From: an uncultured Eubacteriales bacterium
GTDB taxonomy: Bacteria; Acidobacteriota; Aminicenantia; Aminicenantales; UBA4085
Assembly: GCA_964557435.1 (NCBI GenBank)
Contig: CAZLAM010000018.1
Coordinates: 23,021-87,020 of the forward strand
DNA length: 64,000 nucleotides
Direction: 5' to 3'
In this document: piece by piece, positions 4,919 to 51,071 of the stretch
Layout: each line of letters starts with the position of its first letter
Position numbering within the stretch: position 1 is the stretch's first letter
Notes under the pieces: generated by a model
Seen by the model: only the letters and a program-made list of their open reading frames with translations
Told to the model about the DNA's origin: nothing
Database searches by the model: none
Made by a program: the position numbers and the translations under genes

Positions 4919-4968
4919 TAAATCCATTCGACTCCCCGGGCTTCAGCCCGGGGAGTCGAATGGATTTA
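4919..4968. terminator. REP-like perfect hairpin (23-bp stem, 4-nt loop TTCA); probable bidirectional terminator between convergent genes
   Basis: Left arm 4919-4941 is the exact reverse complement of right arm 4946-4968 (core AAATCCATTCGACTCCCCGGGC/GCCCGGGGAGTCGAATGGATTT). It overlaps the last 8 codons of the AbiEii-like gene. A T-run (4892-4898) precedes it, downstream of the + strand gene. Confidence 0.6.
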
Positions 4969-8390: not shown

Positions 8391-8475
8391 GTTATCGTTC
8401 TCCTTATCAGACTAAAGATATCAAAATTCCGGTCGTTTTTCGAGAATATCCGCAGACGGTTTCCCGGCCTGTTCA

Positions 8476-10251: not shown

Positions 10252-10330
10252 CTCTCCTTCCTGATTTTCTCAGCGTCGGAGGTAGCGCCGTCCATTCGAA
10301 ACCTTGTCCCGAGACGAGCTCTCGATCCTT

Positions 10331-16007: not shown

Positions 16008-16182
16008 GCGACGCCTCTCCTTATCCTGATTTAAACGATCCGGCGATTCGGCCGTCCTCCGCCCGATTCGGGCCGGGCGGTCCCGGAACGGTTTCGTTTC
16101 GAGAAAATGAATAGCGCGGCCTCCATATATATTTCCGCCCGGGGATGGTGTCAAGCTGAAAGAATTAAAGTAAAATAAGTAC

Positions 16183-19700: not shown

Positions 19701-21380
19701 ATGAAAAAAGCGTTGATTTTGGCCCTCGCCTTTTTAACCGGCGGGCTCCTCGCCTTCAGCCAGAAGATCTATTGGGGCGATGCCGTCCCTCCGCACTGGA
19801 ACGGAAGCTGGCCGTCCGAACTGCGGATTGTCCCCGAGAAGACCGATTACGTCCGGACGACGTCGTCCCTCGAGCTCCTCGAGTTCATCGACCGGCTCAG
19901 GTGGAAAAGCGACAAGATCCACGTCTTCAATATGTATACGAGCCCGCTCGGCCGCGTCTGCCCGGTCCTCGTCCTGGCCAATCCGCGGATCACCTCGCCC
20001 AACGAAGCCGCGAAATCCGGAAAGACGGTTGTCTACCTCGAGGGGAATATCCATCCTTACGAAGCGGAAGCGAAGGAGGCGCTCCTGATGCTGACGCGCG
20101 AAATCCTGCTCGGCCGAATGACGCACCTCCTCGAGAACCTGATCATCGTCGTCTGCCCGAGTTTCAACGTGGACGGGAACGACGCCTGGAGCCTTAACGA
20201 TGGGACGCCTCATATCCTGAGCGGCGGGACGAACGCCCTGGGATTCAATCTCAACCGCGATGCGATCAAACTGGAGACGCTCGAAGTCAATGCTCTCTAC
20301 CGGACCGTCTTCAACCGCTGGGACCCGATCCTGATCTACGACGGCCACGCCATGGAGCGCGTCCAGCACGGCTACGCCATCGCCTATGCCACGTCCTCCG
20401 TTCCGGCAGCCCATCCGGGTCCCCGGACATATGTCTGGGACAAGCTGTTCCCGGAGCTCCGCGAGGAGACGCGAAAGAATTTCGGGCTCGAAACGTTCAC
20501 CCATTGCGGGCTCGACGAACGCTGGCCGCCGACAGTCTGGAGCCATGACGGGGCCATCTGGACGACCGAGGCGAAGTTCGTCGCCGGCGCCTACGGCCTC
20601 CGGAACCGCATGTCCATCCTGGCCGAGACGCCGATCCACCTGTCGTTCCAGCGCAAGATCTATGCCCAGTACGCGCTCATCGCCGGGATCCTCGAATACG
20701 CCCGGCGGCACGGCCGGGAGATGCAGGAGGTCTGCCGGACCGCGGACCGCGAGGTCGTGGAGGCCGTTCGGACCAGGGCCGGGACGGGCGAGCTCAAGAA
20801 TTTCACAGCCGGCCGCTACGAATCCCGGGGCCGCGTCGACGTCCTGGCGTACCAGGAAAAAAACGAGCCCGACTATATCCCGGGGACGAGCATCCGCGCC
20901 CGCATCCCGGCCTCCCTGCTCGGGCCGCCCGTCCTCGTCCGGGGCCTCGAGGACCTGACGAAGCCGGTCGGTACGGCCGAAGCCGGGGTGCCGCGCGGCT
21001 ATCTGATTCCGGCCGATCTGGATGTCCTGGCCGACAAGCTCCGAACCCAAAACATCAAAGTCGAAGTGCTGGCCAAGCCGGTCAAAGCCGCGGGCGAGGA
21101 GTTCGTCGTCGACAGCCTGGTCAAGGCGAGGCGCGGGGGATTCGCAATGACCTCGCTCGAAGGCGGCTTCGCCCGCTCCCAGGTCAAGGAATTCCCGGCC
21201 GGAACGTTCCACGTAGATTTGGCCCAGCCGCTGGCGAACCTGGCGTTCTATTGCCTGGAGCCGCAGGCAGCCGACGGTTTTGCCGCCTGGAGCCTTCTCG
21301 ACGGATACTTGAAATCGGCGGGCGTCGACAAACGGAGCGTGGTTTATCCCATCTTCAAGTATTCCAAGATCATCGAATAA
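19701..21380 (+). CDS. M14-family zinc carboxypeptidase-like peptidase
   Basis: AGGAGG RBS and signal peptide. YLEGNIHPYEAEAKEA (HxxE zinc motif) and the overall M14-like layout. Confidence 0.8.
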   Translation: MKKALILALAFLTGGLLAFSQKIYWGDAVPPHWNGSWPSELRIVPEKTDYVRTTSSLELLEFIDRLRWKSDKIHVFNMYTSPLGRVCPVLVLANPRITSPNEAAKSGKTVVYLEGNIHPYEAEAKEALLMLTREILLGRMTHLLENLIIVVCPSFNVDGNDAWSLNDGTPHILSGGTNALGFNLNRDAIKLETLEVNALYRTVFNRWDPILIYDGHAMERVQHGYAIAYATSSVPAAHPGPRTYVWDKLFPELREETRKNFGLETFTHCGLDERWPPTVWSHDGAIWTTEAKFVAGAYGLRNRMSILAETPIHLSFQRKIYAQYALIAGILEYARRHGREMQEVCRTADREVVEAVRTRAGTGELKNFTAGRYESRGRVDVLAYQEKNEPDYIPGTSIRARIPASLLGPPVLVRGLEDLTKPVGTAEAGVPRGYLIPADLDVLADKLRTQNIKVEVLAKPVKAAGEEFVVDSLVKARRGGFAMTSLEGGFARSQVKEFPAGTFHVDLAQPLANLAFYCLEPQAADGFAAWSLLDGYLKSAGVDKRSVVYPIFKYSKIIE

Positions 21381-21407
21381 GGGACGGTGCGCCCGGTGCC
21401 GCCACCT

Positions 21408-21616
21408 CACGCAGATAGTTGCCGCCCTTGCTGACGACATCCACCGGCCGGAAGACGATCTCGTGCGGATCTATCCAATTGGTATCGTTGCGGCCGAACC
21501 CGGAGCCGGTCCACGGAATAATAGCATCCGAATTTGAGTCCGGCCTCACGGCGGGCTTCCGCCAATTCCCCGCTGACATCCCGTTTAGAGGACGCAGCGT
21601 CGACGATTCGGAACAT
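21408..21616 (-). pseudogene. Internally deleted, frameshifted GH29 alpha-L-fucosidase relic
   Basis: Two blocks are homologous to the intact GH29 gene. About 21505-21615 corresponds to 25775-25885 (FRIVDAASSKRDVSGELAEARREAGLKFGCYYSVDR vs FDVVDATPFKRDFIGELGEACREAGLKFGCYYSVDR). About 21411-21500 corresponds to 25303-25392 (NDTNWIDPHEIVFRPVDVVSKGGNYL vs NDNNWIDPREIVFRLVDIVSKGGNYL). The blocks lie in different frames and the ~380 bp between them is missing. Confidence 0.8.
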
Positions 21617-21621: not shown

Positions 21622-24600
21622 TCAATAATTCGAGGGGCCGTTGGGGGGAGCTTGGATGGGCCGGACCTGCAGCCGCCGCTCGCCGGACCGCGCTTGAGGA
21701 GTGACAAGGTGGAGCTCGGCCCGGGCCTCGTCGAAACCTCGACCGAATAGCATCACGATGAATTCCACGGCTTTCCCGGCCCATTCTTTTTGCACGGGAA
21801 GCCGGAAGGTCATCCCGCCGAGTCCCTCGCTCTTGATCCAGGAGCAGTTCCACTCGTAATTATGATAGGGATAGCTCGGCACCCGGTGCCTGGGGACGAT
21901 AATCTTACCGTCCACGGAGGCCACGACATAAACGCCGTCGACGGGGTCGAATTTCACAGCCCCGGAGTGGACGGCAATGGCAAATTCCTGGCCCGGCCGG
22001 TAGTCCTTGATAACCGCTTCGGATTTCAGGATGCGCCCCGGCCGAGGCGTTTCGCCGAAGAAGTTCGTCGCTTGCCACCGGCTGCGGTCCAGCTTCCGGC
22101 CAAGCCCGTCATATCCCACAATCTCCGAAACGCTGAAATTTCGCCCCCTTATCCGTATATAGCGGCTCCGGTTCGGCGGCAGGAGGACCACGATGAGGAC
22201 GGGTTTGTTGTCGCCGGCCTCAATGTCAAAAATCTTGATTTGTTTCCCCCTTTGCCGGATCTCGGTAAAGAGCGGGATCCCCCCGGCCTTCTTGAGGGAC
22301 AGACCGTCCACACGGGTCCACGTCTTCAGATCGGGGGAAGTCTCGACGACTTCGAGAAATCCGTCTTCGGTCTTCCGGACGATGTGGAGCTCGAGTTTTC
22401 TCAGATCCGCGAGCCCTCCCAGATCGATCCTCCACATCGATGTATCGCTCCTATAGGGCGCGGGGCTGCCCGTAAAAGGACTGCGCTTGCTGTAGCCGTC
22501 GCTCCAACGGGTGATGGGGTCATCATCGAAAGCGTTGCGGGCGCTCCCCTCGGCGGCGATGACCTTCCGTTCCATATATTCCCGGCAGGCTTCGATCTCC
22601 GGCAGAGACGAGGGGGCGAGTTTCAGGGAATCCATCTCCCGAACCTCCAGGGCATCGTCGTCCACCGTGAATTTTGCCAGCTCCGCCAGATAAGAGCCGT
22701 CGATCCGGCCGGGTGGAACCTCCGTAAAATCCTTCAAGCGGGAGAACGGCTTCCCGCCGAGAGGTTGTCCGGGAAAACGAACCCGCCAGGTCTTTTCTCC
22801 GGCCGCGTTCACGGCCCGGCCCATGGACAGGACCGACCGTCCTCCGAAATTGTGGAACGAGACTTCGTAGTCCCGTCCCGGGTCGCCCAGGAGTCTCAAA
22901 TCGAAGGCGTCCGCGTCGGGTCCGGGGACGACTTCAAAGGGAACGCCCCCGAGATAAGGCTCATCCGGAAGCCCGGTGTCGACCTGGATCATCCGGACAT
23001 CGAAGGGCTCCAGTTCGATCCGGAGGGACTCTCCGGCCTTGATCCCCTGTTTCGAAATGAGGAATTCGCGGGGGTGGCGCTGCCGCACGGTCAGCGGCGT
23101 CCCCGGGGCCGCGGCCAGGCCGATGGTCCCGTCCAGGCGGACGGACTTGGTTTGGTACACCCACGTCGGATTGCGCAGAACGATCAGAGACGACCGGCCG
23201 TCGCCGTGGGCGATGTCGCCGTCGTTCAGCGGGAAGGCCTTTTTCAACAGAGACTCGGACCGCTTGTGGAGCTGGATGAGCCGGGCCAGCTTGGGATAAT
23301 CCTCGTCGCGCAGGAAGAAAAAAGTCCCATACAGCTCGGGAGAGAGGACGGAAGCCCTTCCGAAGGCCTGGGCGACCAGGTCGTCCTCCCATTTCTCGAC
23401 ACAGCTGTTGAAGCAGATCCCGTGGTCCTCGAACTGCCGGAACGGCGTCTTAAAAAACTCCGAGGTCAGCTCACGATCGATGGAGCTGGATCTATTATAC
23501 AGGGCAGCCGTCGTGTTGGTGATGTGGACGTCGATATAGGTCTCTTCCCCCTTCCACAAAAGACAGTCCGTGATGGCCAGCATATAGGGCGAGTTGTTGA
23601 TCCGGTGATTGATGGCGATGAACGAGGGATCGATCCGGCGGGCCTCGGCCAGAGCATCGGCCAAACTCTGGTATTTCTTCTCGAGAATATATTTATTCTT
23701 GTGGGCGAGGGCCGAAACCACCGTGTCCATTTTGAAGAGGCCGACGTTGAAATCCCTGACCCAGGAGAGGAGCTGGTTCCGGCGGGCCGCCATCTCCGCC
23801 GGCGTCTCGCCAAAGCCGTCCGGCCCGATCCAAAGCCCCAGCTTCATCCCCAGGCTGGCCGAGGCGTCGGCGATAGGCCGCAGGCCACGGGGGAACCTTT
23901 TATCGAAGTCGGCCTTGAACTGCGGGAAATATGTCCCCTGGGATTCAACCAGTCCGGCGTCGGAGTTGTAGATATCGATCTGCAGGCCAAAAAGGGTTCG
24001 GAGCTTTTTGAGGGCCGCGAAGTTGGCCAGGATCTCGGACTCCAGCGGTCCGGAATTGTCGTGGCAGAGCCAGTCGAAATAGAAGGTCGCGAAATCGACG
24101 CGATTGGCCCGGATGACCTGGATATACCGGCCGAAGGCTTCTTCGATCCGGCCGGACTCCGACACCCCGAAGCCTGTGGTCTTGCTCGTCCATGATCCGC
24201 CCGGAGGGAGAGAAGCGGCCGGAAAATGAGTCAGGCGAAGGCGGCCGTCGCGGACATCCGCCTCGGCGATCGGCCATTCCATCCCCCAGAAGATCTGGCC
24301 GTCCAAAAAGACGGGGTTTTCGGCCTTGGCCGGGAATGGGCTCTCCTTGAGCCGGACGTCGTCGACGGCGGCGTCGTGGATGACGACGGCTTCGCTCAGG
24401 CCGTTGCGGACGGTCAGACGCTTGCGCACATACCAGGCATATTCCCCCAGCTCCAAGTCGACCTGAACCGCCAGCCCTTTTCGTTCCCCTGTCCCGTCAT
24501 AATGGAACCGGAGCAAAGCCGGAGAGGGATTCTCGGTGTTGATCAGGAGGAAATCCCCGGCCGTCGCCTGAAACCGGCTCCCCCCGATCTCGATCAGGAG

Positions 24601-24834
24601 AGCAAAAGGCTCAGCGCTGAGCGTATATGCACTCCCGGTCAGCTTATTGGTCAGGACGGCCGTGCCGGGCTCGGAAAAGCGAAGGGACAGAGTCCCGTTC
24701 TCAAGCCCGCCCGTCAGCGCCGGAGGCCCGGATTTTCGGGACCCTAAAAGGAACGGAACGAAGAAGGACGAAAAGACCAGGGACCAGGCCAAGGTCCTCA
24801 TCAGCCACGAACAAGGGAGGATGGCTTTTTTCAT
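21622..24834 (-). CDS. Large secreted putative glycoside hydrolase (clan GH-D/GH36-like TIM-barrel region) with discoidin (F5/8 type C)-like domain
   Basis: Signal anchor. Central region GLWIGPDGFG...NVGLFKMDTV (K-x-D motif reminiscent of alpha-galactosidase-like enzymes). Later NAFDDDPITRWSDGY...MWRIDLGG (discoidin-like). The start ATG overlaps the GH29 stop (ATGA at 24831-24834). Confidence 0.6.
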   Translation of the reverse strand: MKKAILPCSWLMRTLAWSLVFSSFFVPFLLGSRKSGPPALTGGLENGTLSLRFSEPGTAVLTNKLTGSAYTLSAEPFALLIEIGGSRFQATAGDFLLINTENPSPALLRFHYDGTGERKGLAVQVDLELGEYAWYVRKRLTVRNGLSEAVVIHDAAVDDVRLKESPFPAKAENPVFLDGQIFWGMEWPIAEADVRDGRLRLTHFPAASLPPGGSWTSKTTGFGVSESGRIEEAFGRYIQVIRANRVDFATFYFDWLCHDNSGPLESEILANFAALKKLRTLFGLQIDIYNSDAGLVESQGTYFPQFKADFDKRFPRGLRPIADASASLGMKLGLWIGPDGFGETPAEMAARRNQLLSWVRDFNVGLFKMDTVVSALAHKNKYILEKKYQSLADALAEARRIDPSFIAINHRINNSPYMLAITDCLLWKGEETYIDVHITNTTAALYNRSSSIDRELTSEFFKTPFRQFEDHGICFNSCVEKWEDDLVAQAFGRASVLSPELYGTFFFLRDEDYPKLARLIQLHKRSESLLKKAFPLNDGDIAHGDGRSSLIVLRNPTWVYQTKSVRLDGTIGLAAAPGTPLTVRQRHPREFLISKQGIKAGESLRIELEPFDVRMIQVDTGLPDEPYLGGVPFEVVPGPDADAFDLRLLGDPGRDYEVSFHNFGGRSVLSMGRAVNAAGEKTWRVRFPGQPLGGKPFSRLKDFTEVPPGRIDGSYLAELAKFTVDDDALEVREMDSLKLAPSSLPEIEACREYMERKVIAAEGSARNAFDDDPITRWSDGYSKRSPFTGSPAPYRSDTSMWRIDLGGLADLRKLELHIVRKTEDGFLEVVETSPDLKTWTRVDGLSLKKAGGIPLFTEIRQRGKQIKIFDIEAGDNKPVLIVVLLPPNRSRYIRIRGRNFSVSEIVGYDGLGRKLDRSRWQATNFFGETPRPGRILKSEAVIKDYRPGQEFAIAVHSGAVKFDPVDGVYVVASVDGKIIVPRHRVPSYPYHNYEWNCSWIKSEGLGGMTFRLPVQKEWAGKAVEFIVMLFGRGFDEARAELHLVTPQARSGERRLQVRPIQAPPNGPSNY

Positions 24835-26597
24835 CGGATCTCGACCTTATAGACGAGGGCGTATCGGCAGGGCTGATTTTTAGGCACGGTCAGCGACAGC
24901 CCTTCACCGGTCTGACGCCAGCGGATCTTTTCTTTCGAACCGAGCATGCTCACGGCCGCGATTTCCCCGTCGAGCATTCCCTTTTGACCCAAGGCCCTCA
25001 CCAGGATGTCTTTTTCGGGCCAGGCCAGGCAGATGGCGTACACTGTTTTATTTTTGGCCGTAAATCGCATCTCCAGAGGGGTTTGCCCCGTGCCCGCAGG
25101 GGGGACCCCTGCGGCGGCCGGCCCTCCTTTTCCCTTGGCTTTGGCCGCCTCTTTTTCATAAAGCGGTCCTTGGCCATAGACCCGCCAAGCCGAAGTGCCA
25201 TAAATGGCTTCCTGGTTCGTCTCCATCCAGGTCCCGACTTCCATCAACCGGTCGATGCTCGGCTGGGGGATGAGGCCTTCGGCGGTGGGGCCGACATTCA
25301 GCAGATAGTTGCCGCCCTTGCTGACGATGTCGACGAGCCGGAAGACGATCTCCCGCGGATCGATCCAGTTGTTGTCGTTCCGGCTGTACCCATAGGTCGA
25401 GTTCAGCGTCCCCGGATTCTCCCAATCGTACCCCGGCGTCCTGTCGGCGATCTCGTTGTCTCCCAGGGAGATGTAATCGCAAAAACGGTAGGGATCCGGC
25501 ATGGGGTTGATGAACGTCTTGATCCGGCTGTTGATGATGCAGTCCGGCCCAAGCGTCCGGATCGTCCGGACAAGTTCTTCGAGCTGGCTGTCGCTCTTCA
25601 TGCCTATACCGTCGAACCAGAGGACGTCGGGCCGGTACTTCTTGAGCAATTCTTCGACCTGGGGCTTGGCGAAGTCCCGGAAATAGCGGTCAAAATCCTC
25701 CCGCGTCGAGTTCGGGAAGTCCCACATGTTGGTCTGTTTGAACCTGTTGCCGGGACCCGTGGGCCGGCGCCAATCCCGGTCCACGGAATAATAACACCCG
25801 AATTTGAGTCCGGCTTCCCGGCAGGCCTCCCCCAGCTCCCCGATAAAATCCCGTTTGAAGGGCGTGGCATCGACGACATCGAAGTCCGTCAAGGCCGACT
25901 TGTACATGCTGAAGCCGTCATGGTGTTTGGCCAGGGGGATAACGTATCGCATGCCGGCTTTTTTGGCCAGGGCGGCCCAGGCCTTGGCGTCGAACTTGAC
26001 GGGGTTGAATTCCCCGGCCAGACGCGCGTATTCCTTTACAGGAATCTTTTCGTCGAACATGATCCATTCGGCATAGTTGTCCGGATGGGTCTTGTTCTTC
26101 CAGACGCCCGCGGGGACGGCATAGAGTCCCCAGGAGACCATCATTCCGAATCGGGCTTCGCGCCACCAGGCCAGGCGCTGCTCCCGGGTCGGTTCCGGCT
26201 TCTTCCCCTTTTCCTCGGGAGCGGGCGGAGCATCCGCGGTTTTCGCCGGGTTTGCCGCCACCGCTTCCATTCCTCCATAGGCGGCCTTGATCTGCCTGAC
26301 GAGAGGAGGGGCGGAATAATAATAGCTCATCAAGGTGCCCTCGCCGCCGCGGCCGACCGTATAATCCCCGGCCAGCGCCGAGACGATCTCTTCCCCGGCG
26401 AAATCAAGAACCGGGTCTCCCTCCGCGCCGATGATGGACACCATGGGAGGCTTGTCCGAACGGCAGCCGAACCCGGCCAGGAGGAGAACCCCGGCCAGGA
26501 CCGCCGCGATGGCCACGGCGGAAAATCCGGCAGGATGGAACGGCCTGACCGGGAATTCCGGCCGATCGGTTCGGGAGTTTTCGTTCCAGGCTTTCAT
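24831..26597 (-). CDS. GH29 alpha-L-fucosidase
   Basis: Start set to ATG 26597 (RBS AAAGAGGAAAG), which forms an ATGA overlap with the GH127 stop. N-terminal TM/signal segment. GH29 blocks AKHHDGFSMY, GLKFGCYYS and PDVLWFDG (nucleophile Asp context). Confidence 0.9.
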   Translation of the reverse strand: MKAWNENSRTDRPEFPVRPFHPAGFSAVAIAAVLAGVLLLAGFGCRSDKPPMVSIIGAEGDPVLDFAGEEIVSALAGDYTVGRGGEGTLMSYYYSAPPLVRQIKAAYGGMEAVAANPAKTADAPPAPEEKGKKPEPTREQRLAWWREARFGMMVSWGLYAVPAGVWKNKTHPDNYAEWIMFDEKIPVKEYARLAGEFNPVKFDAKAWAALAKKAGMRYVIPLAKHHDGFSMYKSALTDFDVVDATPFKRDFIGELGEACREAGLKFGCYYSVDRDWRRPTGPGNRFKQTNMWDFPNSTREDFDRYFRDFAKPQVEELLKKYRPDVLWFDGIGMKSDSQLEELVRTIRTLGPDCIINSRIKTFINPMPDPYRFCDYISLGDNEIADRTPGYDWENPGTLNSTYGYSRNDNNWIDPREIVFRLVDIVSKGGNYLLNVGPTAEGLIPQPSIDRLMEVGTWMETNQEAIYGTSAWRVYGQGPLYEKEAAKAKGKGGPAAAGVPPAGTGQTPLEMRFTAKNKTVYAICLAWPEKDILVRALGQKGMLDGEIAAVSMLGSKEKIRWRQTGEGLSLTVPKNQPCRYALVYKVEIR

Positions 26598-28603
26598 TGT
26601 GGATTCTTTCCTCTTTTTTGGGATTCGGCGATCCAAACGGTCATGTCTCCGGCCCCCCGGTTAGCCCAGGCGTAGTAAGGAACAGCTTGAAAAGCGATAA
26701 CGTCCCCCCCGCCGGAGAGACCTTGTCCCCGAATAACGGTCACGCCGCCGAGAAGATCAACCCGGCGTTCCGCCGTGATGGCCGCGTCTTCCGGCAGGGA
26801 CAGTTTCAGAATGTCGCCGGGATTGTCGGTGCTTTCCAGACAGTAGAGGAGCGGTCCGCGCATCAGCGCCACTCGCCCCCGATCGGCCTCCACGGCGGGG
26901 TTCGCCCGCACGCGGCGGACCGGCATGGGCAGGTCCAGTTCCAGGATGTCGCCTTTTTCCCAGGCCCGCCGGATCCGGGCATAACCATTCCTGATATCGA
27001 GGGTCCCGACGGACTTGCCGTTGACGGCCATCGTGGCGCCCGTCCGAACCCCGGTGCCGACGGCCGCGAATCGGTACAGATCGGTTTTGACCGGTCCGGC
27101 GCCCGTCCAGGCGGGGATCCGAACGTTCAGGGTGAACACATCCGATCCCTCCGGTTCGATGCCGATCTTTACCTTCCCCTCCCAGGGATATCGGGTCGTC
27201 TGGGTGAGCTTGATGAAGCCTCCCTTCCACGGAACGGCGGCCGCGCTATCCATGAAAAGGTTCACGAAGATCCCCTCGGCGTCCAGGGCAAACACAAAAT
27301 TTCCCACTTGGGGGATAAGGCGTACGACGTTGCTCGGACAGCAGGCCGGGTCGGACCAGCGGTCACGGCGCAGGCCGCTCCGGCCGGCCAGCGGGTTCTC
27401 ATAGAAGAACTCGTCGCCGGACAGGGAAACGCCCGACAGAAATCCGTTGTAGAGGCCGAGTTCCAGGACATCGATGTATTTTGCATCACCCTCGAGCAAG
27501 CTCAGCCGATGGTTCCAGAGGATATTGGCGACGGCCGCGCAGGTTTCGCCGTAGGCTTTTTCATTGGGGAGGTTGTAGGGAGTCCCGAAGCCTTCGTCCC
27601 CGTATTGAGCCGTCCCGACGCCGCCCGTTATGTAAAGCTTCTTCCCGGCAACGTTGTCCCAGATCCGGCCGACGGCCTGCCGATAGCCCGGATTTCCGGT
27701 TACAGCGGCAACATCGGCCATGGCCGCATACATGTATCCCGCCCGGACGGCATGCCCGACGGCCTCGTCCTGCTCGATGACGGGTAAATGGTCCTGGCGG
27801 TAACGGCGAGTCGACCAGATGGATCTCCGGTTATTCGGGTCGATGGTGTCCTGGCGCACGGATTCCTCCGGCGTCGGACGGCGGTGTTCGGTGCCGTGGG
27901 CGAACCCCCGCTCGTCGAGGAAAAATTTGGCCAGATCGAAATAGCGCCGCGTCCCCGTCGCCTTGAAAAGCTTGACCAGGGCCAGTTCGACTTCCTGATG
28001 GCCGGAAACCTCATAGCGCTTGCCGGGTCCAAAGACGGAATCGATATGGTCGGCCAGGCGGAGGGCGACGTCGAGAATTTTCCGTTTTCCGGTGGCCTGA
28101 GCATAGGCCGCGGCGGCCTCGAAGAGATGGCCCGCGCAGTAGAGCTCGTGCTCCGTCGGCGCCATCGCCCACTTCACCACGGGTGTGCGGGTCGCGAAAT
28201 GCGTGTTGAGGTAACCGTCCTTCTGCTGGGCCGCCGCGATAGCCTCGATCAGGCGGTCAACGTACGCTTCCAACTCCGGGTCCGGATGGATCGTCAGGCT
28301 GTAGGCGGCGCCTTCGATGATCTTGTAAACGTCCGAATCATAAGCGTGGGAACCCTTGGAAACACCGGGTTCCCAGCCCGCGGCGATGCGGAAATTGCCG
28401 ATGTTTCCGGAAGCTTCGCACTCCCGGAAAGCCGCAGGCAAACTGACTGTTCGATTCCGCTCGATTCGGGGCGCCCAAAAATCATCGGTAATCCGGACCT
28501 GGGCGTAGGAGACGGCTTCGAACGGCTTAGTCCCGGCCCGGTCCGCTCCCGCCGAACCTAGAACAACCCCAAACAGGGCCATGATTTGCAGAATGCGCAT
28601 CAT
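26594..28603 (-). CDS. GH127 beta-L-arabinofuranosidase-type glycoside hydrolase (DUF1680)
   Basis: Signal peptide. DUF1680/GH127 layout with E-T-C (YGETCAAV) and C-C (DPACCPSN), the zinc/nucleophile cysteine pattern known from HypBA1-type enzymes. Confidence 0.85.
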   Translation of the reverse strand: MMRILQIMALFGVVLGSAGADRAGTKPFEAVSYAQVRITDDFWAPRIERNRTVSLPAAFRECEASGNIGNFRIAAGWEPGVSKGSHAYDSDVYKIIEGAAYSLTIHPDPELEAYVDRLIEAIAAAQQKDGYLNTHFATRTPVVKWAMAPTEHELYCAGHLFEAAAAYAQATGKRKILDVALRLADHIDSVFGPGKRYEVSGHQEVELALVKLFKATGTRRYFDLAKFFLDERGFAHGTEHRRPTPEESVRQDTIDPNNRRSIWSTRRYRQDHLPVIEQDEAVGHAVRAGYMYAAMADVAAVTGNPGYRQAVGRIWDNVAGKKLYITGGVGTAQYGDEGFGTPYNLPNEKAYGETCAAVANILWNHRLSLLEGDAKYIDVLELGLYNGFLSGVSLSGDEFFYENPLAGRSGLRRDRWSDPACCPSNVVRLIPQVGNFVFALDAEGIFVNLFMDSAAAVPWKGGFIKLTQTTRYPWEGKVKIGIEPEGSDVFTLNVRIPAWTGAGPVKTDLYRFAAVGTGVRTGATMAVNGKSVGTLDIRNGYARIRRAWEKGDILELDLPMPVRRVRANPAVEADRGRVALMRGPLLYCLESTDNPGDILKLSLPEDAAITAERRVDLLGGVTVIRGQGLSGGGDVIAFQAVPYYAWANRGAGDMTVWIAESQKRGKNPQ

Positions 28604-28633
28604 TCACCGTCAAACGGCTGAATTGACGATCGG

Positions 28634-30766
28634 CTATTTCTTCTCCAGCATCTTGATCGCGGCGTCGGCCGCTCTTTTGACCATGTTCTGGTGGGACGGA
28701 AGGGACGCCGACTGCCGTAGAAAGGGGATCACGGCCGGGTCGCCGGTCTTGCCCAGGGCGCGCAGAGCTTCGGCCTGAACCCGACCGCTGGCATCCTTCT
28801 TGAAAAGATCCTGATAGAATCCGGCCAGGCCGCGGTCTTGGCGTTCACCGAGGGCCAGGACGGCCGCCGTCCGGACCGAAGAATTCGAGTCCTGGCAGGC
28901 TTTTTTGATGACGGCGGGGATTTGGGGCGAGGGGATCTTGGCCAAGGCCTCGACGGCGCTTCGGCGGACCGCCCAGAACGGATCGCTTTGGGCGCTCAGA
29001 CCCAGTCCCGCGGCCGTGCGGGGGTCGTCCTTGAAACGCAGGAGCTCCCCGGCGGCTCCCATCCGTCCGATCACGTCATCGTTCTTGAGCTGAAAGAGCA
29101 GCTCGTCCTGGTCCCGGGGAAACGAAACTTCCTTGATGAGCGTATTGCCTTCATCGAACCGGACCAGAAGGGGCTTTGTTTCGGCCGGGAATTCAAACGT
29201 CTCTTCGCGCTCTCGGATCCAGACCTTTTTCGTGTCCTTCCCCTTGGCCGTGACGATTTTGACGGCGACGGGAACCCTGAACACGGGAATCCCCCGGCTG
29301 AAATCCTGGACCTGAACGACCTTGAGCCGGACGACCTTACGCGCTTCGTCCCATTCGCTTTTAATGTCGAAGACCGGGTGGCCTGGTTTGAACAGCCACT
29401 GGTCGAAGAACCAATCGAAGTTCTGTCCTGTAACCGTCTTCACGGAGCGGATGAAGTCGTGCGTATCCACGGCGTCGAAGGCGTAGCGGTTCAAAAAATG
29501 GCTGATGGTCTTGAAGAAGGGCTCCTCTCCGACCATGGTCCGCAGCATGTGGAGGACCAGTGCCCCTTTGGGATACGAGTGGGAGTCGAACATATCCCCG
29601 GGTTTATCATAGCGGTCGGAGACGATCGGCCGGATATAACGGGTCTTGGCTTCCCGGAGATAGCCGTTCAATTTGCCCAGCAGGTTGACGGCGCCCTCGT
29701 CATCGCCCTTTTCGAACCGGAAATAAAGGTAATCCGAATACGTTCCGAAGCTCTCGTTCATCCAGGTATGGGCCCAGCTCCGTAGGGTGATGAGATCGCC
29801 CCACCACTGGTGGGCCAGCTCGTGGGAGACGATGCCGATGGCGGAGAAATCCGGCTCGTCCTTCTCGCCGACCATGATCCGATGGGTCATGGCCGTGGCC
29901 GAAGTGCTCTCGGCGCCTCCGCCGGAGGGAACCGAGATCTGATCGTACTTCTGCCAGGGATAGTCAAAGCCGAAAGTTTTGTTGAAGAACTCGATCATTT
30001 TCGGCGTCTTGCCGTAGGTGGGGAAGGCCTTCTTCTCGTCCTGAGGATAGACCCAGTAGTTCACGGGCAGGGTCTTGTACGAATCCCGGACCACCACATA
30101 GGGGGCGGCGGCGAAAAAGATGAGATACGTCGAATGGGGGAGTTCCTGGGACCAATGGTACGTCACCAACCCGGTAGCCTTGTCCTCGACGACGCTGTCC
30201 AGCCGGCCGTTCGCGGCGACCTTGAGGCCGGATTTGACCGAGACGATGAGCTCGTTGGTGACTTTGTCGTTGGGGTAGTCAAAGCAGGGAAACCAGTGGT
30301 GGACGTTATCGGGGAACGAATCGGAAAACGCCATCTTGGGATTATCCGGCGTCTCCTCGGCGAACCGCATCCCGATCTTGGGGTCCCGGCCATTGTAAAA
30401 GCAAGTGAACGAAGCGATTTCGCCGAACTTGAAGGGCCGGGGAAGGAACACCTTGAGCTCCTTGTCCGACTGCTCGAATTTCAGGGGCGCGCCATAGTCG
30501 CTGAGGACGGACGTCACGGCGAACTCTTCGGCGTCGAGGATGCAGACATCAAGCCCGTCTCTGAGCGAGGAGACTATCACCGTTGTTTCCCCGGCGAAGG
30601 ACTTGCCGTCGATATCGAGCTTGAGCTTGATCCGGTAATGGATCGCGTCATAGCTCCGGCTGCGCTCGGACTGGAGGGTCATCTTGGAAAAATCGATCGT
30701 TTGGGCAGGGGCGGCCAAAACGAGGGCCAGGACCAGCCCGGCGATGACAGTGAGTTTTTTCATCAT
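28634..30766 (-). CDS. M1-family zinc aminopeptidase with C-terminal HEAT repeats (paralogue of 13779-16007)
   Basis: HELAHQWWGD...WMNESFGTY. Signal peptide MMKKLTVIAGLVLALVLAAPAQ. Start at ATG 30766 is preferred (AGGAGA RBS, 8-nt spacing). The alternative ATG 30805 would overlap the upstream stop (ATGA). Confidence 0.88.
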   Translation of the reverse strand: MMKKLTVIAGLVLALVLAAPAQTIDFSKMTLQSERSRSYDAIHYRIKLKLDIDGKSFAGETTVIVSSLRDGLDVCILDAEEFAVTSVLSDYGAPLKFEQSDKELKVFLPRPFKFGEIASFTCFYNGRDPKIGMRFAEETPDNPKMAFSDSFPDNVHHWFPCFDYPNDKVTNELIVSVKSGLKVAANGRLDSVVEDKATGLVTYHWSQELPHSTYLIFFAAAPYVVVRDSYKTLPVNYWVYPQDEKKAFPTYGKTPKMIEFFNKTFGFDYPWQKYDQISVPSGGGAESTSATAMTHRIMVGEKDEPDFSAIGIVSHELAHQWWGDLITLRSWAHTWMNESFGTYSDYLYFRFEKGDDEGAVNLLGKLNGYLREAKTRYIRPIVSDRYDKPGDMFDSHSYPKGALVLHMLRTMVGEEPFFKTISHFLNRYAFDAVDTHDFIRSVKTVTGQNFDWFFDQWLFKPGHPVFDIKSEWDEARKVVRLKVVQVQDFSRGIPVFRVPVAVKIVTAKGKDTKKVWIREREETFEFPAETKPLLVRFDEGNTLIKEVSFPRDQDELLFQLKNDDVIGRMGAAGELLRFKDDPRTAAGLGLSAQSDPFWAVRRSAVEALAKIPSPQIPAVIKKACQDSNSSVRTAAVLALGERQDRGLAGFYQDLFKKDASGRVQAEALRALGKTGDPAVIPFLRQSASLPSHQNMVKRAADAAIKMLEKK

Positions 30767-30801
30767 GATGTTTCTCTCCTTGGATGGATATCGTCCCGCG
30801 T

Positions 30802-32199
30802 TCATTGGCGGCCTTTTTCCTTGAGGGTCTGGAGGATCCCGTCCGCCTTCATCAGGGCTTCAACTTCCTGGACCGTCCGGGGGACCCCGAGCGACAAATT
30901 TTCGCACCCGTTTTCGGTGATGGCGATGGTGTCCTCGATTCGGATCCCGATCTCCTCCTCGACGCGGAACAACTGGATGTCGCAAGCGAAGACGAACCCG
31001 GGGGTGAGGACTTCCTTGGACCCGGCGAACGTCCCCGTGACGTCGTGAGTGGCCAGACCGATCATGTGGTTATAACCGCCGAGGCGGACGATCCCGCGGA
31101 AGTCCTTGGCGTACTTGTCCAGGCCTTTTTCCTTGAGCATGGCCTCGACTTTCTCCCCGACCTGTCCGAAAGTGAGGCCGGGTCGATAGTTCGCTAAGCA
31201 GACGTCGCGCACGGCCAGGGCGGCCTCATAGAGCTCCTTCTGGCGGGGCGAGAACGTCCCCGAGGCGGGAAAAGTCGTGGAGATGTCCACGTGATAATCG
31301 GCGTAATCGGGGCCGGCATCCAGGATAACGAAATCGCCGGATTTCAGGACCCGGTCATAGATGTGGTAGTGCCCGTAGGCGTGGTTCTTCCCGGACATCA
31401 GAATCGGGCTGTAGGCCATGTCGACCGCCCCTTCCAGCCGGCAGACGAACTGGAACACGGCGGCCAGGGCCTTCTCGGAGACGCCGGGCCGGGTCGACTG
31501 GATCAGGGCGTTGTGGGCTTTGACCCCGATCTTGGCCGCACGGCGCATTACGTCCAGCTCGGCGGCCGACTTGATTTTGCGCAAGTCCCAGACCATGGCC
31601 GAGCAGTCCCGGACATCGACCTGGGGAAACTTGTCCCGCATTTGTTTGATGAACTGGAGCTCCCGGGTGAGCCGCCCGTCCCAGATATTCTGGGTCATGG
31701 TCTTCTGGAGGGAGTTGAATTTCTCGTTGGTGTTCTCCGCCCCCAGCTCCTCGGGCTTGAACATCGTGTAAAAAACGCGGGTCCGTTGGCTCAACCCCGT
31801 CAGGGTGGACCCGAATTGCTCGGCGGTGAGGACCTTCTCGATCCCCGTATATTCTTTGGGGGTCTTGATCAAATCCAGGGAAATGCCCTCGCTGTCGGCC
31901 TCCTTCTCGGTCATGGTGAAAAAGAGGAGACTCTCTTTCCGGACACCATCGATGATGAGAGTGGCGTTGGGAATGGCGACCCCGGTAAAATAGGCGAAAT
32001 CGTGGCCCTGCCGGAACAAGACATCGGCGGCCGGTGTGGCCGCGCCGAGAAACACAGCCACTCCGTCGGGGATTTTGTCCATCAACCGGCCTCGGCGGGC
32101 GGCATATTCGCTTTTTTCGAAGAGACTGCCCGCTGAAACCGACTGGGCAAAAAAGGCCAGAGTGAGTATCAATCCGAACACCCGGAGGCAACGATTCAT
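30802..32199 (-). CDS. Secreted M24B Xaa-Pro aminopeptidase-like metallopeptidase
   Basis: GAGGAGAAAC RBS and signal peptide. AMP_N-like N-domain plus pita-bread domain (VILDAGPDYADYHVDISTTF, HMIGLATHD, IRIEDT). Confidence 0.85.
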   Translation of the reverse strand: MNRCLRVFGLILTLAFFAQSVSAGSLFEKSEYAARRGRLMDKIPDGVAVFLGAATPAADVLFRQGHDFAYFTGVAIPNATLIIDGVRKESLLFFTMTEKEADSEGISLDLIKTPKEYTGIEKVLTAEQFGSTLTGLSQRTRVFYTMFKPEELGAENTNEKFNSLQKTMTQNIWDGRLTRELQFIKQMRDKFPQVDVRDCSAMVWDLRKIKSAAELDVMRRAAKIGVKAHNALIQSTRPGVSEKALAAVFQFVCRLEGAVDMAYSPILMSGKNHAYGHYHIYDRVLKSGDFVILDAGPDYADYHVDISTTFPASGTFSPRQKELYEAALAVRDVCLANYRPGLTFGQVGEKVEAMLKEKGLDKYAKDFRGIVRLGGYNHMIGLATHDVTGTFAGSKEVLTPGFVFACDIQLFRVEEEIGIRIEDTIAITENGCENLSLGVPRTVQEVEALMKADGILQTLKEKGRQ

Positions 32200-32264
32200 T
32201 TGAGTTTCTCCTCAGCAGGACACCCGTGTCCAAGATCTTCAGATATATTAGATATCTACGCCAT

Positions 32265-32293
32265 TATAGAAGACCGGCTTCCTCCAGACAAGG
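32265..32293 (-). promoter_or_regulatory. Sigma70-like promoter for the M24-M1-GH127-GH29 run
   Basis: On the minus strand: TTGTCT (32293-32288), 17-nt spacer, perfect TATAAT (32270-32265), about 66 nt upstream of ATG 32199. Two palindromes lie between it and the RBS. Confidence 0.4.
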
Positions 32294-32337: not shown

Positions 32338-34485
32338 CTATTCAACTTTCGTCCCGGCGGCCGGAGAAACGGAGATTCGGACGGGAACGGCGGATTCCAG
32401 GCGGACCCACAGCACGAGGTCGTCGCCTTCGAGTCCGTGAACATGACCGGCGCGGACATCCGGGCCGAGCGGAGCGGGCTTGCCGTCGATCGTGACGAAC
32501 GGGACGGCCGGGCCCCAGTTGCGGATCCGCAGCACCGGATTCAAAACCGGCGATGCCGCGGTCGCCCGGAGCGTGACAGCCAGGTCCGACGATGCGTCCG
32601 GGCCGCGGCGGGCCAGGACGAAGGCCCGCTGGGTCGGATCGTAGCCTTCGTCGGCGAAACCGTCCCCGGCGATTTCCAAGCGGGGCGGCGAGAGCCATGA
32701 TTTCGCCAGCGGCAGCAGCGCGGAGGCCGATTTTTCGGTCAAACCGTTAAGCATGATCATAGTGATGCCGTCGTCCGTCTCTTCATAGGGCCGCCACGAC
32801 TGGATGTGGGCCAACGAACTGTGTGAGACGCGGTCCGGGGCGACCGCCCAGCGGCCGTTGGAGCGGATCTGCTGGGAGACGGGCCAGTGATTCCACCACG
32901 GAAAAATGGACCGTTCCCGGATGATCTCACCGGCGTAGCAATCGATGGCCACGTTTCTCGGATCGACGACGACGTAGGGGCTGAACTTGGCCTTGAGGTT
33001 CACCCGCAGGATGTTGCCGCCGGCCGGGAGCGTCAGCCATTTGTGCGCGCCCGTATCCTGGTCGCTGATCCGATGCAGGAGGGTCAGCGTTTCCTCGCTG
33101 AAGTCGGCCGGATAACCCGGCGCCTCGCGGGCCCAGGAGTAGGTATGGGTTTCCCCCTTCATGTTGGCCAGGGTCAGGGCATCGGCCTGAATATTGTCTT
33201 CGGGGCGGGTGCCGGGCGGGTTGATGATGATGGCTTCGTGATACTGGCGGAAATTCTCCAGGCCCTGGCCCTCGGCCGGATTCACCCTCGGATTGGAGGA
33301 CCAGACCTTGATTTTGCGGATGCACGTCCCGTCCGGATAGACCGTGTATGTCTCCTCAACCCAATCGCTCCAGCCGGTCAACGGATCCACATGGACGAGA
33401 TCATAATTGACGCTGACCGGGGAGTACCGCCACAGCACGACCACGCGGGCTTCGTTGCTTTCCAGTATCCGGGCGGATGAAAACCGGGCCTGTTTGTCGG
33501 CCATGGGCTCGGCGCTGGTTTCCATGGCCCGGTTCTGGGTTTCATAGAATTCGTTGGTATACCAGATCCCGTTTTCCGTCACCCAGGCCGGAATATAGCT
33601 GGTGCCGCGCCAGAAGATCAGCCGGTTCGGGTTCTCATCGAAGCGGACGACGACGTCCGCCTCGTCCCCCACGCGCCACGGGTTCTCCCATTCCTCGGCA
33701 TACTTGAGCCGCGTATAGTAAGCCCCGAAACGGCCCGGCCCCTTCGGTCCGGAGGGAAGCACCGGAGGCCGGAGCGGCGGCAGGCCGGAGGGAACCAGGA
33801 CGGCATAGGCGGCCGCGGGCTCTCCGGCGGCCGGGACGCGGTCATGGATCCGGATCTCGTCGAGGATCCCGTCGAAGGAGAACGCCACCGGGGCGACGAC
33901 CTTGATCTCTTCGCTGAGTCCGAGCGGGGTTTGGTTCCGGCCGATCCACAGGTCGGCCTCAGGCGCAAAGCGCGGCGTTCCGGAAATCTTCGTTTCGCCG
34001 ACGAGAGTCCCGTTCAGGTACAGCTTGATCCCGGAGGCCGGGTCAAAGGCGGCGACGAGATGGTTCCACGCGTACAGCGGGAGCTTGACCGTCGATCGGC
34101 TCTCCCGCCATTGGCCGTCCACGGCCACCTGCAGCCCGAAGCGCCCCTCGGGATCGATCCCGAAGAAATAACCGGCCTGGTGGTCCTTTTCCTGATTGAC
34201 GACGGCGCACCACGTCCAGGGATAGGTCTGGACGGCGACCCACGCTTCGATGGAAAACGCGCCGCCGAGCCGGGGCGCCTTCGACGCGCCGCGGATCACT
34301 GCCGTCGTTTGTCCGTCGAAGCGGAGGCCGTTTCCGGCGACGCCGGGGACGAACTTTTGAAAGCCGCGGATTTCGTCGCCCTCTTTTCCCCGTTCGAACG
34401 ACCAGGACGCGGCGGGCTTCTGATCCGCCGCAAATGCCGGGACGGCGAGAAGAACGGCCAAGCTCCAGAGCGTGAATCGACGCAT
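32338..34485 (-). CDS. Secreted LamG (concanavalin A-like) domain protein with large uncharacterised C-terminal region
   Basis: Start set to ATG 34485 (AGGAGG RBS); the ORF-track start 34500 is a TTG. Signal peptide. LamG-like N-domain (GNGLRFDGQTTAV...FSIEAWV...WNHLVAAFD...LYLNGTLV...FDGILDEIRIHDR). Confidence 0.75.
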   Translation of the reverse strand: MRRFTLWSLAVLLAVPAFAADQKPAASWSFERGKEGDEIRGFQKFVPGVAGNGLRFDGQTTAVIRGASKAPRLGGAFSIEAWVAVQTYPWTWCAVVNQEKDHQAGYFFGIDPEGRFGLQVAVDGQWRESRSTVKLPLYAWNHLVAAFDPASGIKLYLNGTLVGETKISGTPRFAPEADLWIGRNQTPLGLSEEIKVVAPVAFSFDGILDEIRIHDRVPAAGEPAAAYAVLVPSGLPPLRPPVLPSGPKGPGRFGAYYTRLKYAEEWENPWRVGDEADVVVRFDENPNRLIFWRGTSYIPAWVTENGIWYTNEFYETQNRAMETSAEPMADKQARFSSARILESNEARVVVLWRYSPVSVNYDLVHVDPLTGWSDWVEETYTVYPDGTCIRKIKVWSSNPRVNPAEGQGLENFRQYHEAIIINPPGTRPEDNIQADALTLANMKGETHTYSWAREAPGYPADFSEETLTLLHRISDQDTGAHKWLTLPAGGNILRVNLKAKFSPYVVVDPRNVAIDCYAGEIIRERSIFPWWNHWPVSQQIRSNGRWAVAPDRVSHSSLAHIQSWRPYEETDDGITMIMLNGLTEKSASALLPLAKSWLSPPRLEIAGDGFADEGYDPTQRAFVLARRGPDASSDLAVTLRATAASPVLNPVLRIRNWGPAVPFVTIDGKPAPLGPDVRAGHVHGLEGDDLVLWVRLESAVPVRISVSPAAGTKVE

Positions 34486-34601
34486 CCGACCTCCTGACAA
34501 TTCCGGTCCTCCCCCGGGGAGGATAAATTTGGAAAACCATTATACGGCTTCGAGCCCGATTTTGAAGGATATTTTTTATTTTTCGGCGCGCGGCGGCAGG
34601 G

Positions 34602-34631
34602 TTGACAGGGATTCTCCGTTTAACATACATT
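34602..34631 (+). promoter_or_regulatory. Sigma70-like promoter for the beta-helix gene
   Basis: TTGACA (34602-34607), 18-nt spacer, TACATT (34626-34631), about 57 nt upstream of ATG 34688. Confidence 0.35.
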
Positions 34632-34687
34632 CAGCCGGAAAGCCGGGGCGAAAAAAATTCAGTCTTGGTCTTGAAGGAGAAACAAAA

Positions 34688-36913: not shown

Positions 36914-37020
36914 TCAGCGGCCTTCCTGTTTTTAGGACGTTCGGCCCGAATTGAGGGGACATTTCTCCCGCTTTTTTGTATAAATATGGAACATCCATTG
37001 TTCAGTTTCGAGGAGGCGTT

Positions 37021-51052: not shown

Positions 51053-51071
51053 GGCCGGTCCCTTCTTCAGC

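Follow-up and report, generated by a model that had tools for sequence, protein, structure and literature searches.

A five-gene peptidase-glycosidase run in an Aminicenantales hydrolase island: a probable composite of two modules with a possible glycopeptide substrate

Loci in which peptidases and glycosidases are combined for the degradation of O-glycoproteins are already known, mainly from gut mucin degraders. Here we describe a run of five minus-strand genes from an uncultured Aminicenantales-type bacterium (Acidobacteriota), encoding an M24B Xaa-Pro aminopeptidase-like protein (M24), an M1 aminopeptidase with C-terminal HEAT repeats (M1), glycoside hydrolases (GH) of families GH127 and GH29, and a 1070-aa protein of a family without a name. 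The stretch analyzed, hereafter the window, is 64,000 nucleotides long (positions 23,021 to 87,020 of contig CAZLAM010000018.1, assembly GCA_964557435.1). Window proteins were assigned to families by Pfam and NCBIfam profile scans (~40 window open reading frames, ORFs, scanned) and compared by tblastn and gene tables with 175 loci (L001-L175).

The system of Bifidobacterium longum for hydroxyproline (Hyp)-rich glycoproteins (HRGPs) comprises HypBA2 (GH121), HypBA1 (GH127), HypAA (GH43) and an ABC transporter (PMC7263609, PMC10850190). The window shares with it a GH127 carrying the same catalytic Cys/Glu/Zn motif, and its target, Hyp-rich plant glycoproteins, is of the class proposed in an earlier interpretation of this DNA (the sequence-only reading). 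However, the partners of the window GH127 are a GH29, the 1070-aa protein with its GH36/GH101-like predicted fold, sulfatases and several peptidases, and neither GH121 nor GH43 had a Pfam match among the window ORFs scanned. Furthermore, the B. longum GH127 is cytoplasmic and acts on imported oligosaccharide, whereas the window enzyme, by inspection, looks exported. In Bacteroides thetaiotaomicron, the GH127 BT3674 of an arabinogalactan polysaccharide utilization locus (PUL) is active on larch arabinogalactan and removes beta-L-arabinofuranose (Araf) caps from side chains (PMC10850190). Compared with this arabinogalactan or arabinogalactan-protein (AGP) PUL, the window has no SusC/SusD pair (zero Plug, TonB or SusD Pfam matches among the ORFs scanned), exo-beta-1,3-galactanase, GH43_24 or GH16, and it links its GH127 to peptidases, fucosidases and sulfatases.

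A parallel for the mixing of gene classes is the B. thetaiotaomicron PUL BT4240-50, in which an M60-like peptidase, a beta-galactosidase and an alpha-N-acetylgalactosaminidase (alpha-GalNAc-ase) serve mucin O-glycoprotein degradation (PMC11992087). There, too, peptidase and exo-glycosidases are encoded together, and an alpha-glycosidase works with the peptidase. In contrast to its endo-acting M60-like O-glycopeptidase and SusC/D PUL, the window encodes exopeptidases (M24B, M1, S9B, M14), no SusC/D, and enzymes predicted to act on Araf, fucose, rhamnose and sulfate. The interleaving of exopeptidases and exoglycosidases in one run had been called uncommon; the layout is as that reading described it, but the mucin loci provide precedent (PMC11992087). 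For uncultured, anaerobic Latescibacteria of anoxic lake water and of lagoon sediment, degradation of algal glycoproteins was suggested from GH127, GH29/95, GH78/106, sulfatases and peptidases (PMC4454575). That proposal rests on genome-wide content with no physical linkage reported, whereas the window genes are adjacent or co-directional, and gene fusions in relatives of the window support functional coupling. Literature searches on DUF6259/DUF7402, on AGP with DPP-IV and PULs, and on HRGP with aminopeptidase clusters returned no description of such a locus. The most novel elements here, on which the sequence-only reading had put no weight, are the 1070-aa GH36/GH101-like family with its GH127 fusion, a family joining LamG_3 to an all-beta domain, and a run probably born by gene deletion.

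Organization and origin of the run

The five ORFs follow one another on the minus strand as the sequence-only reading had laid them out (Table 1), and Pfam agrees with its assignments of the first four (M24, M1, GH127 and GH29); NCBIfam concurs but contributes no name at the equivalog level. Its claim of gaps of at most 35 nt was borne out by the junctions as read: 35 nt separate the M24 stop (TGA, 30804-30802) from M1, 30 nt lie between the M1 stop and the GH127 ATG at 28603, and both claimed ATGA stop/start overlaps were read directly, at 26597-26594 and 24834-24831. For M1, the start ATG at 30766 is favoured because a ribosome-binding site, AAGGAG, precedes it by 9 nt and because public gene calls use it (710 aa); with the longest M1 ORF (28634-30805, 723 aa), a third ATGA overlap would arise at 30805-30802. 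The GH29 ORF extends to 26636 if a TTG is taken as start (601 aa), and encodes 588 aa from the ATG at 26597.

A simple sigma-70 consensus scan of the minus strand between 19500 and 34700 gave two sites, 32291-32263 and 34566-34539. The former is the sole minus-strand match between 21.6 and 32.3 kb, in keeping with the earlier claim that a promoter candidate for the run lies only upstream of M24; the latter precedes the LamG_3 gene that stands upstream of M24. A riboswitch or leader RNA as an account of the 138-nt M24 leader was dropped because Rfam and tRNA scans over the whole window gave zero matches. Co-directionality by itself is unremarkable, since the minus strand holds most of the window genes. 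It is the tight spacing and the overlaps that indicate co-transcription, and a single transcription unit is most likely given the common strand, these junctions and the single promoter candidate. The N-termini of all five translations resemble, by inspection, signal peptides or membrane anchors, so that all five enzymes look like exported proteins.

Comparison with the related loci indicates that the run is, with high confidence, a composite of two modules that were fused recently. Module A has the order LamG_3, M24 and M1+HEAT, usually plus a divergent GH141-like gene, and is kept across Aminicenantales (73-89 % identity in L171-L175); in L174, LamG_3 overlaps M24 by 4 nt, and the GH141-like gene belongs to a conserved block kept in L171-L173. 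Module B consists of GH127, GH29 and the 1070-aa gene, followed by a second GH29 that is a relic in the window. It is lineage-specific at this position: among the loci compared, the window and L091 alone have it behind M1. Past M1, L172/L173 continue with a GH29 in reverse orientation, then DUF6259, an anaerobic sulfatase-maturase-like gene, a further GH29 and M14; L174 continues with DUF6259 in reverse orientation, then an unknown gene and GH29.

L091 is collinear with the window at 94.6-98.8 % DNA identity (blastn). Missing from the window, however, are 1994 bp of L091 (582-2575), which cover an opposite-strand sulfatase (624 aa, 563-2437) located between M1 and GH127 and the region upstream of GH127. 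The window spacer keeps the final 19 nt of this sulfatase ORF, and a pseudogene fragment of the L091-type sulfatase, 86 % identical, is found in L172 (21467-21724) and L173. The fragment implies that the sulfatase was ancestral here and was lost in the window lineage, and the deletion of ~2 kb would thus have fused two transcription units, although the 2-kb difference may instead be a mis-assembly. Members of the same sulfatase subfamily adjoin 1070-aa homologues or lie within 3 kb of them in L038 (7299-8897; Draconibacterium) and L083 (15421-17097; Formosa), and another is ~9 kb from a 1070-aa homologue in L016.

The encoded proteins and their recurrent partners

The 1070-aa protein had zero above-threshold Pfam or NCBIfam matches, its best Pfam signal being a sub-threshold F5/8 type C (17.7 bits), and a PDB sequence search was empty at E <= 1. 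A confident AlphaFold2 (AF2) model made from an alignment of 36 homologues (predicted local distance difference test, pLDDT, 84; predicted template-modelling score, pTM, 0.83) shows an N-terminal beta-sandwich (residues ~40-225), a TIM barrel (~250-530) and beta domains (540-700), then a helical linker (713-768), an F5/8C-like domain (800-910) and a C-terminal beta-sandwich. Foldseek matched this model to PDB structures of GH101, GH36, GH97, GH129 and GH31 (E 1e-14 to 1e-9, probability 1.00), including GH101 endo-alpha-GalNAc-ases, a GH36 alpha-galactosaminidase and many GH36 alpha-galactosidases. By fold alone, the protein resembles a TIM-barrel alpha-glycosidase. With the GH36/GH101/GH129/GH97/GH31 enzymes it shares the predicted barrel and flanking beta-sandwiches, but it carries further domains at both termini and has no detectable sequence-family membership; its earlier description as GH-like therefore stands for the predicted fold and not for membership of a named GH family at the sequence level. 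GH121, by contrast with the modelled TIM barrel, is an (alpha/alpha)6 barrel. K368 and D370 ('FKMD') are invariant across the 36 homologues. In a non-significant hhalign alignment (probability 0.5 %) of the family profile with a GH27 from L007, K368-x-D370 lines up with 'KLD', which we take to be the GH27 nucleophile motif, making the invariant K-x-D a candidate for the GH27/36 nucleophile position.

The family is moderately large: of 1.84 billion cluster representatives, 1413 match it at E <= 1e-3, and a collection of species-representative genomes gave at least 587 confirmed matches, none of them named. Its ~800-aa core spans Bacteroidota, Verrucomicrobiota, Planctomycetota and Lentisphaerota. 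In Carboxylicivirga (L050) a homologue is part of a PUL ordered SusC-SusD-1070aa homologue-GH97, and in Formosa undariae (L083) one is found with GH27, GH31, two GH78, an esterase and a sulfatase. In each of three contigs, L001 (10001-15121, 1706 aa), L101 (6758-11470) and L160 (6746-11191), a single uninterrupted ORF joins a 1070-aa homologue to GH127; the two genes adjoin in L092, L093 and L041, and in L098 and L064 they are within 2-2.5 kb of each other. Because of the fusions and the recurrent adjacency, the 1070-aa protein and GH127 almost certainly act on the same substrate, as judged from gene linkage. In L007-L010, a GH29 gene lies beside the 1070-aa homologue. It is intact in these four loci and occupies the place where the window has, downstream of the 1070-aa gene, two fragments that align with aa 239-280 and aa 403-443 of the complete GH29 at 69 % identity, so the fragments represent a decayed second GH29 gene. 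A GH89 (NAGLU) gene lies near the 1070-aa homologue of L002.

The LamG_3 protein encoded upstream of M24 belongs to a second family without annotation. Its AF2 model (pLDDT 85) has structural matches limited to the lectin-like N-terminal jelly-roll, which matches clostridial neurotoxin binding domains at a template-modelling (TM) score of ~0.2, and a structure search of the model gave no match for the C-terminal ~470 aa. This all-beta part has many invariant Trp, Asp and Glu residues and, as modelled, may be an undescribed carbohydrate-active domain. LamG_3 genes adjoin 1070-aa homologues in L001, L006, L027, L028, L030, L031, L043, L085, L101 and L160, in Aminicenantes as well as Bacteroidota loci. 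Since it partners both M24-M1 and the 1070-aa homologues, LamG_3 bridges modules A and B. Across loci, the recurrent partners of these two uncharacterized families are GH127, GH29, GH78 and the sulfatase subfamily.

The GH127 protein starts MMRILQIMALFGVVLGSAGA, a hydrophobic leader that is signal-peptide-like by inspection, and contains the catalytic, middle and C-terminal domains of the family (PF07944, 334 bits; PF20736, 81 bits; PF20737, 92 bits). Among solved structures it is closest to 6ex6 (539 bits; deposited as 'Six-hairpin glycosidase'), followed by 4qjy (504; deposited as GH127 beta-L-arabinofuranosidase), HypBA1 3wkw (339) and 5mqo (303). The predicted activity, beta-L-arabinofuranosidase, has aceric-acid hydrolase and 3,6-anhydro-D-galactosidase as alternatives; against the NCBIfam aceric-acid-hydrolase equivalog the protein scored 422 bits, below the cut-off of 950. 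Alignment with 3wkw showed conservation of the ETC and ACCP motifs and of an upstream Glu, which we take to correspond to HypBA1 Glu322/Glu338/Cys340/Cys417/Cys418, that is, the catalytic Cys/Glu and the Zn ligands. 6ex6 is presumably BT3674 of B. thetaiotaomicron, a lead rather than a confirmed identity; the BT3674 work is reportedly that of Cartmell and colleagues from 2018. The GH29 protein, whose leader by inspection resembles an N-terminal membrane anchor or is lipoprotein-like, matched Alpha_L_fucos (PF01120, 276 bits) and Fucosidase_C (PF16757, 43 bits, the C-terminal beta-sandwich) and gave 54 fucosidase hits in the PDB. Its best scores were to 9s0x (309 bits), AlfC (245) and Thermotoga maritima 1hl8 (185), compared with only ~53 bits for the alpha-1,3/4-fucosidase chains 3ues and 3mo4.

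The M24 protein matched AMP_N (PF05195, 43 bits) and the pita-bread M24 domain (PF00557, 163 bits), and Xaa-Pro aminopeptidases head its matches among solved structures (3ig4, 168 bits; E. coli PepP 1a16, 140 bits); against the NCBIfam PepP equivalog it reached 171 bits, with a cut-off of 465. Throughout its orthologue group, Asp ('ACDIQ') replaces the Glu aligned to the EPG motif of 3ig4, and the M24 of the distant locus L041 has the same exchange ('ACDIQ'/'AVDPQ' in orthologues and L041), whereas the paralogues keep Glu ('ANEP', 'TVEPG'). This Glu is presumably the fourth metal ligand of the M24 site, and the Asp variant may mark a functional subtype. The M1 protein carries the zinc motif HELAH...WMNE; at the GAMEN position, that of the GXMEN exopeptidase motif, the alignment reads GGAES, with the Glu kept and the remainder diverged. 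M1 orthologues throughout Aminicenantales are 72-88 % identical and are called as 709-710 aa.

Possible substrates of the run

The run is part of a ~60-kb island of exported hydrolases in the window. On the glycan side this island encodes three GH95, a GH141-like protein, GH78, GH2, CBM9, four sulfatases and DUF7402 and DUF6259 proteins. There are seven peptidase genes (one DPP-IV of family S9B, three M24, two M1+HEAT and one M14) and, beside them, a prolidase-like amidohydrolase, along with a sugar-type ABC transporter, an Fe-dependent alcohol dehydrogenase (Fe-ADH) and a Zn-ADH. The peptidases skew strongly towards proline-directed types (DPP-IV, the M24 proteins, the amidohydrolase), and proline-directed exopeptidases do cluster beside exo-glycosidases here, in support of the sequence-only reading.

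The explanation we favour overall, to which we give an even chance, is that a composite island run acts on Pro-rich, probably sulfated O-glycopeptides or proteoglycans. According to this explanation, deletion of the sulfatase gene and of the region upstream of GH127 would have put module B 30 nt behind M1, a layout that is seen directly, and module B would now be transcribed from the module A promoter. Outside the cytoplasm, GH127 would strip beta-L-Araf from the glycopeptides or proteoglycans, which would derive from plant or algal detritus; GH29, with the GH95 and GH141 proteins encoded nearby, would remove alpha-L-fucose, and the 1070-aa enzyme would take off an alpha-linked sugar. The Xaa-Pro aminopeptidase and M1 would then trim the bared peptide together with the nearby DPP-IV, M14 and prolidase-like amidohydrolase. 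Freed sugars would be imported via the neighbouring ABC transporter, and products of deoxy-sugar breakdown may be handled by the adjacent Fe-ADH and Zn-ADH. The gene content and its linkage lend moderate support to joint action of peptidases and glycosidases on Pro-rich glycoconjugates, and we regard a common glycopeptide substrate for the two classes as at, or just short of, evenly balanced.

On the glycan side, GH29, GH95, GH141, GH78, the sulfatases and the link between the subfamily of the lost sulfatase and the 1070-aa family suggest fucose- and rhamnose-rich sulfated glycans. Sulfated Hyp/Pro-rich glycoproteins, AGP-like or algal, are candidate substrates that would accommodate these features. 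The identification of the substrate with AGP-like or algal (green-algal, diatom) Hyp/Pro-rich glycoproteins is nevertheless the least secure part of the proposal, and we consider it doubtful. Similarly speculative, if marginally less so, is the wider suggestion that the 1070-aa protein founds a new GH family with GH36/GH101-like fold which, paired with GH127 and LamG_3 and with the M24B Asp variant, M1+HEAT and DPP-IV, would form an undescribed pathway mineralizing sulfated Pro/Hyp-rich algal or plant O-glycoproteins in anoxic sediments.

The alternative that survives best, although we think it unlikely, is coincidence: module A would serve general peptide scavenging, module B would act on a peptide-free sulfated fucose/rhamnose/arabinose polysaccharide (algal, cyanobacterial exopolysaccharide or pectin-like), and a neutral recent deletion would have joined them in a hydrolase-dense, fast-rearranging region. 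Several observations favour it and weigh against a shared glycopeptide substrate. The five-gene unit does not hold as a conserved operon: in the nearest relative, L091, the opposite-strand sulfatase splits M1 from GH127, and the syntenic loci L172 and L174, 80-85 % identical, have other genes in place of GH127-GH29-1070aa past M1. Of 80 loci built around the closest GH127 relatives (44-95 % identity), 79 have no M1, M24, DPP-IV or M14 homologue in their flanks, L091 being the only one that does, and such peptidases accompany the 1070-aa homologue in only ~5 of 66 loci outside Aminicenantes; the homologues in cultured Bacteroidota sit in ordinary PULs without peptidases (L050, L083). The L091-type sulfatases found near 1070-aa homologues (L038 and L083, and at ~9 kb in L016) fit the same explanation. 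The four sulfatases, GH78 and three GH95 point to sulfated fucose/rhamnose glycans that are not necessarily protein-bound, and a search for galactanase or hydroxyproline-catabolic genes in the window and L041 found none. GH121 and GH43, as noted for the ORFs scanned, likewise had no match. Because the region is rich in both gene classes, their adjacency could also arise without a common substrate. The set of GH127, GH95, GH141, GH78 and GH2 is said to resemble the rhamnogalacturonan II (RG-II) degradome of B. thetaiotaomicron described by Ndeh and colleagues in 2017.

Coincidence is harder to reconcile with L041. In this distant metagenome-assembled genome (MAG), which has a 1070-aa homologue of only 31 % identity, one strand carries in order GH127-like, DPP-IV, a metallo-beta-lactamase (MBL)-fold gene, the 1070-aa homologue, GH127, GH95, M24+AMP_N, M1+HEAT, an SNF-family symporter and GH127, with gaps of at most ~100 nt from the 1070-aa homologue onward and FAH-family, MBL-fold and ARMT1-like genes further upstream. 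DPP-IV, M24, M1 and an amino-acid-type symporter have thus been united independently with GH127, GH95 and a 1070-aa homologue. Further evidence against coincidence comes from LamG_3, which partners both M24-M1 and the 1070-aa protein across phyla, and from the adjacency of DPP-IV and GH95, which occurs in an Aminicenantes MAG (L014) and again in another phylum, in an Armatimonadetes MAG (L074). A count of seven peptidase genes over 64 kb, the majority proline-directed, is also hard to dismiss as background.

An extensin or HRGP system, the substrate class of the sequence-only reading, is improbable. Here GH127 would remove Hyp-linked beta-L-Araf as HypBA1 does, and the proline peptidases would digest the Hyp-rich backbone. 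Family membership and the conserved HypBA1 catalytic motifs agree with this, as do the Pro-directed peptidases nearby and the in silico proposal of GH127-based HRGP degradation in Latescibacteria (PMC4454575). However, the B. longum partners GH121 and GH43 were not found among the window ORFs scanned, the GH127 has a hydrophobic leader by inspection and is nearer 6ex6 and 4qjy than HypBA1 by the scores given above, genes of Hyp catabolism were looked for and none seen, and the neighbouring sulfatases, fucosidases and rhamnosidases are unexpected for extensin. The HypBA1/extensin interpretation consequently finds little backing in this locus.

Least probable, and by our estimate very improbable, is a mucin-type O-glycoprotein, with the 1070-aa protein as an alpha-GalNAc-ase on GalNAc-Ser/Thr, fucosidases and sulfatases uncapping the glycans and peptidases digesting a Pro/Thr/Ser backbone: the GH101 and GH36 alpha-galactosaminidase matches in Foldseek, the GH29, GH95 and sulfatases typical of mucin degraders, the GH89 of L002 and the precedent of peptidase and GH loci for O-glycoproteins (PMC11992087) are offset by related contigs that come mostly from environmental metagenomes, some from sediment, rather than animal hosts, by a fold likeness to GH36/GH97 exo-alpha-glycosidases at least equal to that to GH101, and by a window in which sialidase, GH20 and GH84-type enzymes were not seen. 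GH127, GH78 and GH106 add to the difficulty. To our knowledge, none of these three families has a mucin substrate.

Genomic setting and significance

Homologues of the 1070-aa, M1 and LamG proteins that are 60-90 % identical are labelled as Candidatus Aminicenantes/Aminicenantales or Acidobacteriota MAGs, and several of the related contigs, mostly from environmental metagenomes, carry a sediment-sample label. The features of the run and its surroundings are listed in Table 1.

Table 1. Coordinates of the five-gene run, its modules and other features of the window.
Feature	Coordinates	Strand	Basis or remark
sigma-70-like promoter candidate TTGTCT-17-TATAAT	32263-32291	-	consensus scan; upstream of M24
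M24B Xaa-Pro aminopeptidase-like, 465 aa	30802-32199	-	Pfam Peptidase_M24 + AMP_N; N-terminal signal peptide by inspection
M1 aminopeptidase + C-terminal HEAT, 710 aa	28634-30766	-	Pfam Peptidase_M1_N + Peptidase_M1 + HEAT
M1-GH127 spacer, probable scar of ~2-kb deletion vs L091	28604-28633	-	blastn; junction 28608/28605
GH127, 669 aa, predicted beta-L-arabinofuranosidase	26594-28603	-	Pfam, three GH127 domains
GH29 alpha-L-fucosidase (predicted), 588 aa	24831-26597	-	Pfam; start overlaps GH127 stop (ATGA)
1070-aa exported protein (predicted), family without a name	21622-24834	-	AF2 model + Foldseek fold
Second GH29, relic	21376-21613	-	tblastn; directly downstream of 1070-aa gene
LamG_3 protein, 715-720 aa	32338-34500	-	Pfam; immediately upstream of M24
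GH141-like beta-helix protein	34472-36913	+	Pfam Beta_helix + GH141_M; divergent from LamG_3 gene
Amidohydrolase, weakly prolidase-like	36976-38523	+	Pfam; NCBIfam Caulobacter-type Xaa-Pro dipeptidase best
M14 carboxypeptidase	19701-21380	+	Pfam; convergent with five-gene run
Second M1+HEAT aminopeptidase	13779-16304	-	paralogue, 47 % identical
DPP-IV-type (S9B) dipeptidyl peptidase	6120-8390	-	Pfam; upstream of DUF7402 + GH95 genes
Tandem M24 pair	60321-63152	-	one with AMP_N (50 % identical to operonic M24), one divergent M24-only
ABC transporter (sugar-type) + Fe-ADH + Zn-ADH	48519-54563	-	Fe-ADH lactaldehyde-reductase-like, below cut-off
Sulfatase + long C-terminal TPR array, 834 aa	2360-4864	+	unusual architecture
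AbiEii-type nucleotidyltransferase toxin gene	4943-5608	-	small ORF upstream without Pfam match

The amidohydrolase scored 95.6 bits against the Caulobacter-type Xaa-Pro dipeptidase model, far under the cut-off of 500, and is possibly a further proline-directed peptidase. In L007, L016 and L172, M14 orthologues likewise lie close to modules of this kind, and the tandem M24 pair is also found in L171. The same ABC transporter/Fe-ADH/Zn-ADH block is present in L001 (1-6148), beside LamG_3 and the gene that fuses the 1070-aa homologue to GH127; this recurrence suggests a linked module for uptake and deoxy-sugar catabolism. In the window, a DUF7402 gene separates DPP-IV from the GH95 fucosidase (6120-12787, minus strand). 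The AbiEii-type gene falls within a patch of low GC content (GC 0.50, at 4-6 kb), and L006 has a similar AbiEi/AbiEii pair. Long ORFs such as 19734-21440 on the minus strand and 60588-63179 on the plus strand (863 aa) were discarded as antisense artefacts of high G+C, because the opposite strand carries Pfam-supported genes.

The run offers what looks like a clean example of an operon arising when an intervening gene is deleted. It also flags two widespread families without annotation, the 1070-aa TIM-barrel proteins and the LamG_3 proteins with an all-beta domain, which are tractable for enzyme discovery because their partners (GH127, GH29, GH78 and a sulfatase subfamily) are conserved. Uncultured Aminicenantes abound in anoxic sediments, in digesters and in aquifers, and their diet is known from gene inventories alone. 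The linkage of proline-directed exopeptidases to a beta-L-arabinofuranosidase, fucosidases and the 1070-aa family would single out glycoproteins or proteoglycans as one class of substrate for these bacteria.

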